Shown: positions 6,789-12,086, counted from the stretch's first letter. The stretch: DNA of 17,056 nucleotides from a bacterium (GCA_049472315.1 JBLIRN010000058.1:1-17056), one strand, 5' to 3'. The notes: generated from the letters alone by a model not told the origin. Numbers and translations are program-made.

Positions 6789-7025
6789 TCAGGCGATCTG
6801 CGCTATGCTCTGGGATATTCCCCTCGCCGAATCCGAACCCAAAAACACGATCAGGCCCTTTTCGATGCCGGCGGCCAGCGCGGGAAGATCCTTAATGCCG
6901 AGGGTATCCTCCGCGATTCCCAGCCTTTTGAACTGCACGGTCAGGGCTGCCGCGGCCATTGATGCACCGATCAAGGGCTCAAGTAACGAATAGACCTTTT
7001 GAACCAACGTATTTGTGTAACTCAT
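6789..7025 (-). CDS. Small helical hypothetical protein (78 aa), translationally coupled to the upstream membrane protein
   Basis: ATG at 7025 forms an ATGA overlap with the TGA of the upstream gene (7022-7024). Sequence MSYTNTLVQK...SIAQIA looks like amphipathic helices. The longer 7226 start overlaps the upstream CDS in another frame. Confidence 0.7.
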   Translation of the reverse strand: MSYTNTLVQKVYSLLEPLIGASMAAAALTVQFKRLGIAEDTLGIKDLPALAAGIEKGLIVFLGSDSARGISQSIAQIA

Positions 7026-7846
7026 GCCTCTCTCCTTGTTGTGCAGGATTGGATCAGCTCCATCTGGTAGAAACCTCCCAGTCCGATCAGAAGATACCCT
7101 GCATTCCATGCCACATCGATGTACGTTGATGGATTCCCGGCACCATACAATCCCACCCAGCCAAGATAGGAGTAAAGGATATCCGCTATGGTCATGGCGA
7201 TAAAGCCCGCTGCGATATACTTCCACGGCCTGGACACGCTTCCCTTACCGAATAGGTAGGTGATATACAGCAAGAAGCCGGCAGGAATGATGAGAAACAG
7301 GTCGCCGATCGGATAGAAAAGGTATACGAATTTCGCAAATACGCTTGTTTCCGGGTCCTTGATGATGGGAATGAGCAACAGGTAGATCAATCCGCCGGTG
7401 ATCACGATGAATACCGCGGAAAGAATCGTATAAGCCTTTGTATTGCCTAATGGAAATCCACTTTTCTTATAGCCGTATATCAACATCGCCAGGCCGGCGA
7501 ACAGGGGAACATACCCTGCAAGCCATGAATAATCCGCAATGGTGGGGAATGTCTCGTTCATATCGAATTTGAAGATGAGTTCCAGGATGGCGTAAATGCT
7601 TTCCCCGCCGAAGAAGAGTATAATGCCGACAAGAAGCAGCATCCATGAGATTTTGGTGGCATCGAATTCCTGGAAGCTTTTGAATGCGGCGGCAAGTCCG
7701 ATACCCGCCACAATGACCGTGATTATCGGGAAAAGGTCGCTCACCACTGCCAGGACATTCTCCCCGCCTATACCAAAAAAATAGAACAACACGTTGATAA
7801 CGACCAAGAACAGCCCCACAATCCATATGGTTTGAGATTTTTTCAT
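7022..7846 (-). CDS. Multi-pass (about 7-8 TM) membrane protein resembling integral-membrane sensory domains
   Basis: Start MKKSQ at 7846 with G-rich RBS. Alternating hydrophobic helices. Motifs FPTIADYSWLAGY, YPIGDL, W..IAAG...IAD..Y and D..W..GY recall membrane input domains of GGDEF proteins and kinases. No cytoplasmic output domain. Confidence 0.75.
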   Translation of the reverse strand: MKKSQTIWIVGLFLVVINVLFYFFGIGGENVLAVVSDLFPIITVIVAGIGLAAAFKSFQEFDATKISWMLLLVGIILFFGGESIYAILELIFKFDMNETFPTIADYSWLAGYVPLFAGLAMLIYGYKKSGFPLGNTKAYTILSAVFIVITGGLIYLLLIPIIKDPETSVFAKFVYLFYPIGDLFLIIPAGFLLYITYLFGKGSVSRPWKYIAAGFIAMTIADILYSYLGWVGLYGAGNPSTYIDVAWNAGYLLIGLGGFYQMELIQSCTTRREA

Positions 7847-8185
7847 CCCTATTCCCCCATTGGTGTGAATGTTTTCATGGACGATTCGCAATCCGTGAGC
7901 ATATGTAGGTATGCATCCTGATTTTCATAGATTATCCTTCGGCATTTTTTGAATGGGGGAACTATGAGGGGATTCTGAGGATTTCCATGCGGCACGGGCC
8001 ATCCGGATGTTTACTATCTTTAGGGTTAGTTGCCCGATTTGTTTTGATAAAAGATATTTTTACACAAGACGCGCCGCAGCCTGCTGTGGGGAGGATTCAT
8101 TGATCCGGTTGTGAAACAATACCGGAACCGTTCTTATGGAATCGGTCATGATCCATATCTGCGGGCGGCGAAAATACGCACCGAT

Positions 8186-8974
8186 TCAGGGCACGAACCA
8201 GCGCAGGAGCCCAGCTATTAGGCGAATCATCCGCACAAACTGGTTCGAAAGGCAACCGCTTCGCATAAACCGTGAAAGCATAGAGAAAAACGGAAGGGCC
8301 TCATTATCCAGAAGAAGGAATGCGAAGCCGAACTGATGCGGGCATTTTTTCAATCCATGCATGATTGAGCCCAGGGGGTCGTTTTTCCTGGGGGGCGGAA
8401 ATCCATCAGCCTGTTCATCGGTATCCGGTTGCAGTGTGCATGCCTCATCCATGACGAGATCCTCGAAGATTTCGTCCCCGCACTTATTGAGGACCTCGAC
8501 GATATCCCGGCTGATCAGGAACAGGGAGCCGCACATATCACAGGCGAGCAGGTGATCTTCGAACAATCCCTTGACCTCTTCGTTGAGTTCATCGGCCAGA
8601 TAGTCATCGATATATCCCCTGAACAACCTGTGGGACATATGGGGGTCAGAAAAGGATGCCTTGTGGCTGATCAAGCGGGGCTCTTTCCTGAGCATTCCCC
8701 GGCAGACTGTTTCAAGTGCCCTTTCCCTGTATCCGCGGATATCTTCGAGGTCGACATCAGGTGTCGATTGCCGCGATCCCTGAGTATAGTAGCTCTTGAA
8801 GAGGGCATATCGTTCCGAAGGAGGCAGCGTTGAAACAAGCTCGAATACACCATCCAGACTCATCGAGCCGATTGCATAGAGATGGACCTCTTCAAGCCTC
8901 TGATCCGCGCAGTCATGCCCGGCATTGGCGCATCTTCTGATAATAAAGAATTGTTTTCTCATTGTCGATCTCAT
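8186..8974 (-). CDS. Zinc-binding anti-sigma-like (zf-HC2/ZAS) protein with an N-terminal degenerate sigma region-4-like segment
   Basis: IDDYLADELNEEVKGLFEDHLLACDMC matches the ZAS pattern YLxxEL...FExHLxxCxxC (H141-C148, nt 8531-8554). Residues 43-90 (LVSTLPPSERYALFKSYY...RERAL) resemble sigma70 region 4. Start could also be ATG 8962. Confidence 0.7.
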   Translation of the reverse strand: MRSTMRKQFFIIRRCANAGHDCADQRLEEVHLYAIGSMSLDGVFELVSTLPPSERYALFKSYYTQGSRQSTPDVDLEDIRGYRERALETVCRGMLRKEPRLISHKASFSDPHMSHRLFRGYIDDYLADELNEEVKGLFEDHLLACDMCGSLFLISRDIVEVLNKCGDEIFEDLVMDEACTLQPDTDEQADGFPPPRKNDPLGSIMHGLKKCPHQFGFAFLLLDNEALPFFSMLSRFMRSGCLSNQFVRMIRLIAGLLRWFVP

Positions 8975-9135
8975 CCCCTTTCCGTCTAAAGAGAAAAAAG
9001 ACCCATAAATCCATCACCTCTCTTTTTGATAGAATGAAAATAAGAACGGATTAAATGTAATAATAAACCGGTACCCTTTTATGATTATTTAAAATAGTAG
9101 GCAAAAAATGTATTTTTTTTAATTTCCCTACCCAT

Positions 9136-9174
9136 TATAGTCGAGCAGGTCAGGATTTTTTTGCACGTTTTTTT
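9136..9174 (-). promoter_or_regulatory. Putative ECF-sigma promoter, copy 1 (upstream of the ZAS gene)
   Basis: Minus strand reads AAAAAAA CGTGCAAAAAAATCC TGACCTGC TCGACTATA. Near-identical to 11235-11274 with identical spacing (TGCAAA-N16-CGACTATA). Confidence 0.65.
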
Positions 9175-9224
9175 CCGGTCGATACAATGCGCGTCCCAAA
9201 CCGTACCCGGGTCCGTGAAATGGT

Positions 9225-10973
9225 CTAAAATCGCTGATTGAACATTACGGTTAATTGAGGAAGCACCTTCTTGAATGTGTCATCATACCTGACCAGATTT
9301 TTTTTAAGTAATTCGTCGGCCCATGTTTTTGTCCTCACCATTAATTCCTTTTCTTGGCAATGGCTTCTTTCCTTTTGTGAATCAATTCGTTTTCCATGGT
9401 GAGGGACTGTGCATGCCATGCAGTTGCTGATGATCTTACGAATTTCCGGGGGATACTGGAGACAGGGGAGAATATGATCCGCCTTTTCCACAATCGTATC
9501 GATGAACCGCCTTCCTTCACCATCATATCTGCCCCTTAATTCATGACACAAGGCGCATAACTGCTCATGCCCCTCATTGCAGGTTGTGCATGCAAGGATT
9601 TCTTCAAGACCCACGCAAAAAAGGTGCTGATCGGCATCCGAAAGGAATTTCCGTGCCTTTTGCCGGAGACCGTTCAGGGAGAATTGGTAGTCTACCTTGG
9701 GGAAGAAATGCTCGATACAGTGCTCCAATTCAGGATAATCCTCAGTGGTTACCATAAGTACCCGCATCATCCCGCGTTCCTTCATTGCGCGCAGTTCATC
9801 CAACCAGAGGGTGAGACCGTTGTATTCCCGATAGGTCTTTTCCACGACAATCCTTTTCCCTGCGCTGGCGGTAAGACCATATGCGATGAGGTGCATGGAT
9901 CGTCTCTTCCTATTATGTTTATTATGCTGATGTAACCCCTTGAGATGATTCAGGTCCAGGAACAAAAACAGCCAGTCGGACTCAAGGGGACTCGAATTCA
10001 ACTGTTTCATCATTCCAATGATGGCATCTATGTCGAATGGTGCTCTGGCCAAGTCCTGCTTGATTATTTCGAGCAGCCTCTGCAACCTCCGGCTGATCGA
10101 TGCGATGGACATGTCCTTGCCGAACTGCTCATGCACCTCCCGTTGTATCGCGGCCTGGTTGAATTCCTCGAGGAAGTAAGCCCTGAAGATGAATCCGTCA
10201 AGGGTGCTGATGTGGGGATAGAACCGGTTACGCAGGTATGCGCCCACCTGCTTGTTATGAATTATCCTTTCGATAACATCCCTGCCGTAAGGGGATTCGA
10301 AGAAATCAAAGATATCGCTGGAAAATATGCAGACGGGGCGGTTTCTTGCCTTCTCATTATTGATCCTTGAGGAGATTATCTTGAGGATGTAGGCATAGTA
10401 ATTCTCGATAGGGTCCCCTTTATTGTCATGTGTCCCATTCCGGATCACCTGGTTGATAAGCTGATCAATGGCCTTTTTCGCTATCCTGGTGTGGTCGCAA
10501 AATTCTCTATCCCGTTCAAATAAGCGATTCGTGATATTGAGGACATTGATCTCATAACTCCTCAGGCGTTTTTCTGCTTCATCTGCGAGTATACCGTGGG
10601 GCCCTTGTGTGTCGAGAACATTCTGGTAGAGCGTATGGCAATCCATGGTGATGGTCTGATGGAGACGTTTTCTGACGTATCTCCTGGCCCCTGATTTGAG
10701 CGCCTGGGCAAGGAGTGACCTTTCAGGGATCTCATTCTGCCCAAGATTGTCAATGAATTCCCGGAGGAATTCCTCAGACAGGCGGAACGGAGTGGGAAGT
10801 TTGTCGAAAAAGTCCCGGTATACCTCATAGTGCTCAATGATCACCGCAATCCGTTCCCTGAATGCGCTGATGAATCCCTTTGTGCCGTCATCGTCTGAGC
10901 CTTTTTCCTGTGTGGAATCCCTTTTTATCACCACGCCCACCCCCCTCCAAAAGGTGCTTAGGTGAAACAACAT
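9225..10973 (-). CDS. Sigma70/ECF-like protein fused to a degenerate IS256/Mutator-family transposase domain
   Basis: aa ~130-212 resemble sigma region 2 (NYYAYILKIISSRINNEKARNR). aa ~255-305 form an HTH (ISTLDGFIFRAYFLEEFNQAAI...SIASISRRLQR). aa ~326-582 follow IS256 transposase motifs in order: SPLESDWLFLFLD, IAYGLTASAGKRIV, WLDELRAMKERGMMRVLMVTTED, IEHFFPKVDYQ, YPPEIRKII, and C-terminal LPQLTVMFNQRF. Start may be GTG 10934 (GGAGG 9 nt upstream). Confidence 0.75.
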   Translation of the reverse strand: MLFHLSTFWRGVGVVIKRDSTQEKGSDDDGTKGFISAFRERIAVIIEHYEVYRDFFDKLPTPFRLSEEFLREFIDNLGQNEIPERSLLAQALKSGARRYVRKRLHQTITMDCHTLYQNVLDTQGPHGILADEAEKRLRSYEINVLNITNRLFERDREFCDHTRIAKKAIDQLINQVIRNGTHDNKGDPIENYYAYILKIISSRINNEKARNRPVCIFSSDIFDFFESPYGRDVIERIIHNKQVGAYLRNRFYPHISTLDGFIFRAYFLEEFNQAAIQREVHEQFGKDMSIASISRRLQRLLEIIKQDLARAPFDIDAIIGMMKQLNSSPLESDWLFLFLDLNHLKGLHQHNKHNRKRRSMHLIAYGLTASAGKRIVVEKTYREYNGLTLWLDELRAMKERGMMRVLMVTTEDYPELEHCIEHFFPKVDYQFSLNGLRQKARKFLSDADQHLFCVGLEEILACTTCNEGHEQLCALCHELRGRYDGEGRRFIDTIVEKADHILPCLQYPPEIRKIISNCMACTVPHHGKRIDSQKERSHCQEKELMVRTKTWADELLKKNLVRYDDTFKKVLPQLTVMFNQRF

Positions 10974-11038
10974 GAAAGCCCCTTATTTCGAAACACTACG
11001 GAAACCTTCTTCGGATACTGATGTGCCTTTCCTACAAA

Positions 11039-11131
11039 GAACGTGTGTTCTGAACTGGGATGAGAGTGAAGGTTGAGCGGGAGCCGCCTGTAACTTCTCT
11101 CCATTGATTGAACGTGTGAATTGAGCGGGAG
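11039..11131. repeat. Two interleaved short direct repeats in the leader of the sigma-transposase gene
   Basis: gaacgtgtg at 11039-11047 and 11110-11118. gtgaa(gg)ttgagcgggag at 11066-11083 and 11116-11131. Confidence 0.6.
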
Positions 11132-11234
11132 GTTTTTTTCGATGGTATTTTTATTACAGTAGACGATGAGGGATAATTTTACTTATGTATATTTTAAAAA
11201 GTATTTATATCTATAATTATATATTCATATTTTA

Positions 11235-11274
11235 TATAGTCGAATAAGCAAGGGATTTTTTGCACGATTTTTTT
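11235..11274 (-). promoter_or_regulatory. Putative ECF-sigma promoter, copy 2 (upstream of the sigma-transposase gene)
   Basis: Minus strand reads AAAAAAAT CGTGCAAAAAATCCC TTGCTTAT TCGACTATA. Same two boxes and spacing as 9136-9174; the spacer differs. Confidence 0.65.
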
Positions 11275-11573: not shown

Positions 11574-12086
11574 ATGAGGTACTTGAATACGGTTTTAGTC
11601 ATCATAAGCTTCACCGCCCTTGTCTTGGTATTGATGATGGCCTATGGGTTTCCCTCGTTTCCATATTATATGCCCTCATCGTCGGGCATTTCAGGCAATT
11701 GGAATGCATATGCCGAAAGTGATAATCAAGGATATGCAAATGTTCTCAGGAGTCTGACCGGATCGCTGCCGGATACGCTTCCCGCAATCGAGATGGTTCC
11801 CGTTGACCCATCGATGGGCGCCTATCCATTCGGCCTTTCCCTTGGATGGATGGGAATTAGCCCGGGCGGATTCGGGATGCCGGGGTATGGATTCCCTTGG
11901 GGTTCCTTCTTTCCCGGATATGGCATGTTCGGAATGTATGGGTCGGGCTATGGAACAGGCTATGGATCAGGCATGCCATACGGCACTGATGCCGTTACCG
12001 TTACCACCCAGACTTTTCACAAGTTCTGCTTTCCCGGGGGATTTTGCTTCTATGCGATTGTTGATTCGGAGCAGGAAGCCGATTAA
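11574..12086 (+). CDS. Exported or membrane-anchored Gly/Tyr/Met/Pro-rich hypothetical protein
   Basis: Strong RBS (ggaggt) before ATG 11574. N-terminal hydrophobic segment. Low-complexity GYG/GMYG/GFP tract. C-terminal FCFPGGFCFY followed by an acidic tail. Confidence 0.8.
   Translation: MRYLNTVLVIISFTALVLVLMMAYGFPSFPYYMPSSSGISGNWNAYAESDNQGYANVLRSLTGSLPDTLPAIEMVPVDPSMGAYPFGLSLGWMGISPGGFGMPGYGFPWGSFFPGYGMFGMYGSGYGTGYGSGMPYGTDAVTVTTQTFHKFCFPGGFCFYAIVDSEQEAD

Follow-up and report, generated by a model that had tools for sequence, protein, structure and literature searches.

What becomes of a transposase that is joined to a sigma factor and placed beside a zinc-binding anti-sigma (ZAS) protein? 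The question is raised by a stretch of bacterial DNA of 17,056 nucleotides (GCA_049472315.1, JBLIRN010000058.1:1-17056; the window), in which one gene (gene 1) encodes sigma-like domains followed by an IS256-like tail and its neighbor (gene 2) encodes a protein with an HxxxCxxC motif. A sequence-only reading had proposed an autoregulated switch of the extracytoplasmic function (ECF) type, with a domesticated, dead transposase as the C-terminal extension of the sigma factor. The sigma/anti-sigma part of that proposal is supported by a sigma fold in gene 1 and by relatives that keep the fusion, the gene pair and the promoter motif. Residue loss and purifying selection likewise agree with a domesticated dead transposase, but the tail is not a defining part of the switch, because unfused relatives have the same pair and promoter.

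Both genes lie on the minus strand, in the adjacent, co-oriented arrangement described earlier (open reading frames (ORFs) 9225-10973 and 8186-8974), and each is present in single copy in the 3.05-Mb genome to which the window belongs (G000). The likely start of gene 1 is a GTG at 10934 or 10931 with a G-rich, conserved ribosome-binding site (GGAGG) ahead of it; the product, P0001, has 569 aa, and its numbering, used here, runs 13 lower than that of the sequence-only reading. A single 2917-base contig from another run bridges the junction between the sigma and transposase parts with 1 difference, so the fusion is not an assembly artefact; among the four runs compared, X13 and X18 left most of the stretch uncovered. 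The fusion is real, old within its lineage and under selection.

The C-terminal half of gene 1 is derived from an IS256 transposase, as the sequence-only reading held. It matches Pfam Transposase_mut (E 6e-12, 45.6 bits, cut-off 21 bits) and the TnpA protein of ISCth4 (6xg8; E 9e-9), and it scores 69 bits on the IS256 model NF033543, below the cut-off of 150. The junction falls near residue 298. On a profile of unfused sigma proteins, residues 240-297 score 17-24 bits, compared with 4.5-7.4 on an IS256 profile, and the residues past this point score as IS256, so sigma4 stands where the transposase's own helix-turn-helix (HTH) was. In TnpA, catalysis uses D175, D241 and E348 together with a C262/H265 motif, the dimer interfaces are the DD and HTH helices 3-4, and the HTH and catalytic domain contact the terminal DNA (PMC7780238). 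The first catalytic aspartate is kept (D327) and the C/DxxH motif is lost in all four fusion proteins aligned. The second aspartate is replaced, by glutamate in the window (E398) and by lysine in genome G002, and an invariant aspartate adjoins the lost position; the catalytic glutamate is absent in the window and in genome G001 and kept only in G002 and at locus L027. The tail lacks both TnpA dimer interfaces, NDB and most of the HTH. No long inverted repeat flanks gene 1 in the window, and a comparison by eye of the 3' ends of three fusion genes with an IS256 copy (L069) found no clear terminal-repeat remnant.

The tail is dead, is not decaying and is held by purifying selection, and its domestication is asserted with high confidence. 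Across the fusion proteins the tails are in frame and 34-68% identical (34-39% across the deepest split, where synonymous sites are saturated), and they are conserved like the sigma part: 68% versus 70-73% between the window and G001, and 39% versus 39-43% between the window and G002. The ratio of non-synonymous to synonymous divergence (dN/dS) of the tail between the window and G001 is 0.17 (bootstrap 0.10-0.25), a figure lowered by a high tail dS and rising to about 0.4 when the dS of the head, i.e., the sigma part, is used. In the independent pair of G002 and L027, where head and tail have equal dS, the tail differs by 13 synonymous and 11 non-synonymous changes (dN/dS 0.195; binomial test against neutral evolution, p 1.6e-4). 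Identity between the tails and 15 intact IS256 proteins is 12-24%, and a long stem places the tails beside the Thermus thermophilus-type IS256 subgroup, with moderate support. The pattern is that of a captured domain that changed fast at first and was conserved later. Comparison of the tails with IS256 proteins ruled out the intact copies in G002 (L029, L037) as the donor. Between the window (9228-10043) and L012, synonymous divergence climbs along gene 1, reaching in the tail about twice that of the head or of neighboring genes.

The N-terminal half of gene 1 shows sigma2 and sigma4 folds. In a model of residues 1-300 (predicted local distance difference test (pLDDT) 81), sigma2 of SigW aligns on residues 92-201 (Z 9.1, root-mean-square deviation (rmsd) 2.8, 89 aligned) and sigma4 of 3mzy on residues 222-300 (Z 8.5, rmsd 2.2, 72 aligned), and the structural match lists consist mostly of sigma factors. 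The sigma4 profile matches ordinary ECF sigma4 with 94.9% probability (hhalign), TIGR02937 is matched by 8 of 12 aligned family members at E up to 1 (best 3e-13), and the unfused relative P0004 is named a sigma-70 family factor by NCBI. There is no sigma3, the linker between sigma2 and sigma4 being about 20 residues long, and both the 2.3-2.4 signature of sigma2 and the recognition helix of sigma4 are conserved. When the sigma and ZAS profiles were run against the sequences of solved structures, all matches were weak or unrelated. Going by its model, gene 1 belongs to the sigma-70 family and carries one additional domain.

Gene 2 carries its zinc motif as H141-x3-C145-x2-C148, invariant in 5/5 homologs, in a region of four helices (residues 115-177). 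The protein scores 16.4 bits on Pfam zf-HC2, below the cut-off of 22.2, and the ZAS region aligns weakly with RsiW (Z 4.3, rmsd 3.5, 67 aligned) and RslA (Z 4.2); a Foldseek search of the PDB with the gene 2 model found nothing at E 0.001. The C-terminus has a hydrophobic moment of 0.52-0.69 in 5/5 homologs, and no clear transmembrane helix was seen in it among the five homologs examined. The sequence-only reading was right about sigma2, the HTH and the ZAS, and missed two further domains, a sigma2-like domain on gene 1 (sigma2') and a sigma4-like domain on gene 2 (sigma4'). The profile of sigma4' matches the family's own sigma4 with 36% probability (score 24, shuffle maximum 13, above 40/40 shuffles) and ordinary ECF sigma4 with 6%. 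In the structural comparison sigmaE region 4 aligns on the gene 2 model at Z 4.7 (rmsd 3.0, 63 aligned), which is weak, as the top VIA row, and isolated sigma4' pieces matched no sigma family. The Atlas model of gene 2 compares with clusters of sigma4 + zf-HC2 fusions at TM 0.62 (feature score 0.88), which is a lead.

The extra domain of gene 1, at residues 14-92, is found in all full-length family members. Sigma2 of SigR (1h3l) aligns on residues 9-92 over 76 of 78 residues (Z 6.5, rmsd 3.9). The profile of the domain matches family sigma2 with 7% and ordinary ECF sigma2 with 9% probability in hhalign, each above 40/40 shuffles, in a test in which true sigma2 reaches just 14%. In isolation the N-terminal domain matched no sigma family (6/6 domains; Pfam, NCBIfam), and self-comparison of the family profile gave the diagonal only. 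An acidic 2.2-like pattern sits in this domain, with a net charge of -1 or lower in 10 of 12 members, and the 2.3-2.4 signature is absent there. That the domain is sigma2-like is considered fairly likely, and it is probably a degenerate duplicate of sigma2.

A predicted complex connects the two proteins. When residues 8-300 of gene 1 are modeled together with residues 28-180 of gene 2, the score is 0.78, and the best of 3 controls scores 0.02. Among known cases, 116 of 157 solved complexes pass the mark used for such scores, as do 2 of 215 mismatched pairs; the mark is roughly valid here, own alignments having been used. The runs agree in 100% of contacts, with a partner pLDDT of at least 80, and all three chose gene 1 residues 24-80 even though sigma2 and sigma4 were present in the same chain. 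The modeled interface comprises residues 24-35, 48-50 and 72-80 of sigma2' and residues 139-144 and 152-156 in ZAS helices 2-3, the ZAS side being highly conserved. Judging from these models, the gene 2 product probably binds the gene 1 product, and there is a slight preference for docking of the zinc domain via sigma2'.

The two genes also share a candidate promoter. As the sequence-only reading had seen, each is preceded by the same bipartite motif (P1 and P2, Table 1); the copies form a direct repeat, 79% identical over 39 nt, with P1 about 300 nt ahead of the start of gene 1. The motif is GCA-N17-TCGAC, read as TGCAAA-N16-CGAC, and in the whole 3.05-Mb genome its strict form occurs only as P1 and P2. 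It resembles the consensus of Bacillus sigma-W and sigma-X. Of the 14 upstream regions examined, 13 carry the motif, always with the same spacing. It stands before both genes in 5/5 family genomes holding the pair, which together with L027 and L028 makes up 12/12 regions of family f1, and it is the same with and without the tail; these sites are not independent, because the genomes are kin. A matrix made only from 6 sites of G002, G004 and G005 ranks the window sites first and third of 6,091,586 positions, with scores of 34.9 and 21.4, and the best scores upstream of the five ordinary ECF genes of the genome are 3.5 or less. TGCAAG and CGACA are predicted promoter forms of ECF218 subgroups (PMC7826278 supplement), and autoregulation is usual for ECFs (PMC7776599). 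In genome G010 a degenerate copy of the motif precedes the second sigma gene, and the short stretch upstream of the CHAT-type gene holds no motif.

Two other explanations of these sites were rejected. The sigma-70 reading TCGACT-16-TATAAT (11243-11216) has a downstream hexamer that is not kept elsewhere, with 9 sites found and 6.7 expected, and remnants of insertion-sequence ends do not fit copies that are direct repeats and that occur also in the tail-less G004 and G005. A loose form of the motif, run over 20 genomes against a control with other dinucleotides, was too weak to define a regulon. Further intergenic matrix matches in G000 (C19:38777, C8:47537, C17:38076, C5:69162) could be regulon members, and A-rich sequence can explain them; the C17:38076 site precedes a gene for an HTH-type regulator, and the C19:38777 site precedes a gene that resembles one for a PaeR7I-type restriction enzyme. 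The leader of about 300 nt from P1 to the start codon (10935-11235, minus strand) is well conserved in G001 and L028, and the region, leader included, has no Rfam match. The motif scan also met a 44-nt tandem repeat with CGACTA at C1:1082-1200 of G000.

The family has a narrow range: it was found in only one order of a small uncultured phylum, with the fusion in three species. A HMMER search with the N-terminal half of gene 1 found 11 proteins, some without the tail. Full-length members occur in 6 of 20 genomes of the phylum, with the gene pair adjacent in 6/6; among 401 genomes, 2 others matched, over the sigma2-sigma4 or the sigma4 part only. The fusion carriers (G000, G001 at 70% identity, G002 at 41%) belong to one genus, and L027 and three further cluster members keep the full tail. 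G004, G005 and G010 have the pair unfused, and G003, a 63% complete genome, has no family match. The fused proteins are monophyletic (100/100), and their sigma part has a long stem branch. Because relatives have the same pair without a transposase, the tail is a single, later addition to one subclade. Word-based homolog searches found 2, 3 and 1 proteins, the last saying little on other tail carriers because even P0001 and P0002 were missed; RpoB and RecA were each found in just 3/5 genomes.

The likely history begins with a duplication of sigma2 in the ancestor of the order, followed in family f1 by a duplication of promoter and sigma gene in which the second sigma4 became joined to the ZAS, and then by the IS256 fusion in one subclade. 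For the middle step this route is favored over an ECF-ZAS fusion that took up a second ECF, because G010 has sigma2' but a ZAS without sigma4'. The orthologous ZAS of G010 runs into a hydrophobic segment and a TPR-bearing region and is placed between two sigma genes, behind the CHAT-type gene (CHAT-type gene, sigma and ZAS at L016:6643-11849). Tandem sigma copies are seen in G010 and also in P0004 and P0006, whose accessions are consecutive. The second sigma copy of G010 (L016:5196-6372) is split in two ORFs between sigma2 and sigma4 and may be a pseudogene, an assembly error or a split gene. In genome G009 an ordinary ECF gene, which weakly matches a sigma model of type III-E CRISPR, lies with a ZAS-like gene and a cut ORF (L023:1186-3313); the cut ORF looks CHAT-like. 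The family may have originated from CHAT-linked sigma modules. At L027:169-555 some 140 unrelated codons lengthen the fusion ORF on its upstream side, where identity to G002 stops, and L027 is possibly a chimeric contig.

The reading favored here, probable without being secure, is an autoregulated ECF-type sigma/zinc anti-sigma switch in which the sigma carries its own docking domain and a dead transposase core serves as an accessory extension. The sigma encoded by gene 1 would very probably read TGCAAA-N16-CGAC at its own gene and at gene 2. The zinc domain of gene 2, pre-packed on its own degenerate sigma4, would dock on sigma2' and keep the sigma off RNA polymerase, and the amphipathic end of gene 2 may hold the sigma at the membrane. 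Zinc loss or proteolysis would release the sigma, and P2 would replenish the partner, closing a negative feedback loop. The IS256 element joined sigma4 in frame, on its C-terminal side, in one subclade; it shed its dimer and DNA-recognition domains and its catalysis, and was retained by purifying selection.

Several results weigh against this reading. The gene 1 model reaches VIA scores of Z 7-11, a modest level for a helical protein, and a Foldseek search of the PDB at E 0.001 found nothing for it. The gene 1 protein of the window has no match to a Pfam sigma family or to TIGR02937, only a weak SigI match; of the Pfam families that the sequence-only reading had named, Transposase_mut passes its cut-off, the sigma families are not matched and zf-HC2 falls short. 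The homology of sigma2' is weak by sequence, and the DNA-reading sigma2 lacks an acidic DAED-type region 2.2, with a DHxR pattern instead. In class I anti-sigma domains, sigma4 is canonically contacted by helix 1 and sigma2 by helix 4 (PMC7406223), and the modeled interface runs via ZAS helices 2-3 rather than through these contacts. The interface residues of sigma2' are no more conserved than the rest of the domain (p 0.62), and the pass of the complex model may reflect likeness, because sigma/ZAS complexes are already solved. In G010 the first sigma gene and the ZAS gene lack the strict motif in their short upstream gaps. The tail dS between the window and G001 is raised, at 1.24 versus 0.44-0.61 (permutation 0/1000); exchange with a more distantly related genome by recombination could account for this, as could constraint on the synonymous sites of the head.

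What the tail contributes can be stated only tentatively. By analogy with TnpA, it may extend sigma4 as an accessory that contacts DNA regardless of sequence, acts allosterically and tunes how the promoter is engaged. This role is favored because the catalytic and insertion domains, which touch DNA in TnpA, adjoin the site of the HTH, the tails are basic (pI 8.1-9.1) and the motif is unchanged. Two roles suggested by the sequence-only reading have lost ground: oligomerization, as both TnpA dimer interfaces are missing, and a new sequence target at the promoter, as the motif is the same with or without the tail. Not far behind, if on the unlikely side, is the possibility that the tail of the same switch is a protein-binding or auto-inhibitory domain, like SnoaL in ECF41 or TPR in ECF42, which senses a partner, metal or redox state without contacting DNA. 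Described C-terminal extensions mostly act by conformational change, protein interaction or proteolysis (PMC8999054). A promoter motif unaltered by the fusion, the invariance of C449 and C463 in 3/3 tails and the long stem branch of the sigma part would suit such a regulatory domain, but no conserved partner gene specific to the fused clade is seen in the loci, and the cysteine count ranges from 3 to 10 between tails.

The docking of the partner has a more conventional explanation, in which the ZAS contacts the functional sigma2 and sigma4, sigma2' being a helical extension that is unrelated or resembles region 1.2, and sigma4' a structural relic. This would agree with the canonical dual interface of class I anti-sigma domains (PMC7406223). 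Many group 1 sigma rows also begin at model residue 43-45, the position of region 1.2, and the lack of a sigma match in the six isolated N-terminal domains points the same way. Against it stand the choice of residues 24-80 in all three complex runs, the nearly complete alignment with sigma2 of SigR and the acidic 2.2-like pattern of sigma2'; the explanation is unlikely. More elaborate, and doubtful, is the idea that sigma2' supplies the acidic core-binding face lost by the DNA-reading sigma2. With sigma4'-ZAS it would form a closed pseudo ECF-ZAS complex in trans on a membrane leash, and after release the tail would be the DNA-gripping arm of the holoenzyme.

The charge of region 2.2 bears on whether gene 1 is a working sigma at all. 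The region has a net charge of +1 or +2 in 9 of 12 members and of -1 to -4 in 8/8 ordinary ECFs, in a register that rests on a weak alignment. The acidic motif in region 2.2 binds the beta' subunit of the polymerase, and EcfP, which lacks it, is intrinsically inactive (PMC8999054); because the DNA-reading sigma2 lacks this core-binding motif, plain holoenzyme formation is not assured. Known ECF43 members are also without it (PMC8999054), so its loss lowers the case for a canonical ECF and not for a protein that works like one. It is improbable that another ECF reads the motif while gene 1 serves as a DNA-binding repressor, decoy or anti-anti-sigma. The reversed charge would fit that arrangement, and G000 does hold five other ECF-like genes and one FliA-like gene; but the motif lies upstream of 0/5 ordinary ECF genes, -35 and -10 are both kept at fixed spacing, and the 2.3-2.4 signature and sigma4 recognition helix are conserved. 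Four paralogous ECF-like genes of G000 (on C1, C9, C10 and C11) have a common insertion in sigma2.

The tail as a mere passenger, from a recent or neutral read-through into IS256 or an assembly chimera, is largely refuted and very improbable. Its restriction to one genus and the unexplained rise of dS in one comparison speak for a passenger. The contig from another run spans the junction, though, and the tail of 270 codons is open in three species and the further cluster members even though a single stop codon around position 300 would be enough to bring back the ancestral sigma. Saturation of synonymous sites across the deepest split and selection in the second pair, where head and tail have equal dS, add to the case against it. 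A still-active transposase or nuclease aimed by the sigma domains, to which the kept first aspartate (4/4), the invariant aspartate beside the lost second one and the glutamate of G002 and L027 might be credited, is scarcely credible given a second aspartate that is glutamate or lysine, the loss of CxxH in 4/4, the missing glutamate of the window and G001, the absent dimerization, NDB and most of the HTH, and the single genomic copy.

Table 1. Features of the sigma-transposase locus, with positions counted from the first letter of the window
Feature	Position	Strand	Remarks
Gene 1, 569 aa: sigma2' - sigma2 - sigma4 - dead IS256 core	9225..10934	-	ORF, family matches, model
Sigma2', ~residues 14-92: extra N-terminal four-helix domain, predicted docking site of the zinc domain	10659..10895	-	Model alignment, profile comparison, complex model; moderate support
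Sigma2, ~residues 92-200	10335..10661	-	2.3-2.4 signature kept, region 2.2 basic not acidic
Sigma4, ~residues 222-297: sigma-derived HTH, 5-6 residue insertion	10044..10271	-	
IS256-derived tail, residues 298-569	9225..10043	-	Last HTH helix, RNase H-like catalytic domain, helical insertion domain, native C-terminus
Gene 2, 258-262 aa: sigma4' - ZAS - linker - amphipathic C-terminus	8186..8974, start 8974 or 8962	-	
Sigma4', ~residues 37-97: degenerate sigma4, HTH part unmodeled	8684..8866	-	
ZAS domain, ~residues 115-177, HxxxCxxC at 8554-8531	8444..8632	-	
C-terminal hydrophobic and amphipathic helices, possible membrane anchor	8189..8341	-	
P1, ECF-type promoter candidate	11235..11265	-	-35 TGCAAA 11264-11259, N16, -10 CGAC 11242-11239, then TATA
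P2, ECF-type promoter candidate	9136..9166	-	-35 TGCAAA 9165-9160, N16, -10 CGAC 9143-9140
Terminator-like hairpin, gene 2 end	8177..8205	-	Weak, because 4 such sites were found and 4.0 are expected by chance

Other elements lie around the two genes. Ahead of gene 2, in the window and G001, a strong ribosome-binding site is followed by a 6-codon ORF and a possible hairpin (8987-9025, minus strand); a similar site starts gene 2 itself in G004 and G005, and the site is possibly a relic start or a means of translational coupling. Divergent from gene 1, the single-copy gene at 11574-12086 (plus strand) encodes a small Gly/Tyr/Pro-rich protein with a hydrophobic N-terminus and no family match in Pfam or NCBIfam. 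It has homologs at the same place in G002, G005 and L028, not in G001 or G004, and is a possible output or signal of the switch. Downstream of gene 2, a multi-pass membrane protein and a small ORF (7022-7891 and 6789-7226, minus strand), without Pfam matches and syntenic only in G001, are probably outside the system.

Judged by its sequence features, the system would work like an ECF/ZAS pair combined with an extended ECF, lacking the canonical acidic region 2.2, and it is not an active IS256. Three of its features appear undescribed: the dead DDE tail, the doubled sigma2 and the sigma4 on the anti-sigma. The main text of PMC7826278 nowhere uses the word "transposase", which occurs once in the part of one supplement file that was searched, for an unrelated ECF43 neighbor; a sigma-transposase fusion of this kind was not found described in the literature searched, most subscription papers lying outside that search. 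The steps of domestication can be followed in neighboring genomes, from unfused relatives through one fusion and a graded loss of catalytic residues to continued selection. A doubled sigma2 with apparently divided labor, joined to a sigma4-bearing anti-sigma, would be a new sigma/anti-sigma build. If true, the combination of a split sigma2 with a DNA arm would amount to a new way of controlling ECF factors, and to the bacterial equivalent of transcription factors derived from Mutator.

Among the closest known systems are pairs such as SigW-RsiW, SigR-RsrA, SigE-ChrR and SigL-RslA, which have the same sigma2 and sigma4 folds, an adjacent HxxxCxxC partner and a bipartite promoter with a 16-nt spacer before the sigma gene (PMC7406223). 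Unlike pairs of the SigW-RsiW type, the system described here has an extra sigma2-like domain, a basic region 2.2, a sigma4-like domain on the anti-sigma, a separate promoter copy before the anti-sigma, a non-canonical predicted interface and a transposase tail. A folded domain behind sigma4 is also found in ECF41, 56, 205, 294 and 295 (SnoaL), ECF42 (TPR), ECF57 (WD40) and ECF238 (Cys-rich) (PMC7826278, PMC8999054). In these groups there is typically no anti-sigma, whereas here the anti-sigma is kept and the extension is an IS256 RNase H-like core. Gene 2 has the same sigma4-ZAS layout as the ECF-ZAS fusions (ECF48, 52 and 53, and the sigma4 + zf-HC2 clusters of Acidobacteriota and Myxococcota), but it lacks sigma2, the completing sigma2-like piece being on the neighboring protein. 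PhyR-NepR-EcfG likewise uses a degenerate sigma-like domain as an anti-sigma binding site (PMC8999054), whereas the decoy-like domain described here is part of the sigma itself, in cis, and the loci hold no receiver domain or kinase.

On the transposon side, the tail shares its catalytic, insertion and C-terminal domains and motifs with IS256 transposases such as ISCth4 TnpA, the nearest sampled being the IS256 copies of a T. thermophilus plasmid (L069, L047); it differs from them in having no DD, NDB or full HTH, in its lost catalytic residues, in its single copy and in its low identity. Domestication of DDE transposases into transcription regulators is known from plants, and that of TnpB/Cas12f nucleases from bacteria. 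A dead transposon-derived protein is used in gene control in dCas12f-sigmaE, which works with an ECF sigma (PMC12259090), TldR is likewise a dead transposon-derived protein reused in gene control, and the plant regulators FHY3/FAR1 derive from Mutator-like transposases (PMC4890758). In contrast to all of these, the locus described here uses a bacterial DDE core, has no RNA guide and carries the transposase remnant covalently fused to the sigma.

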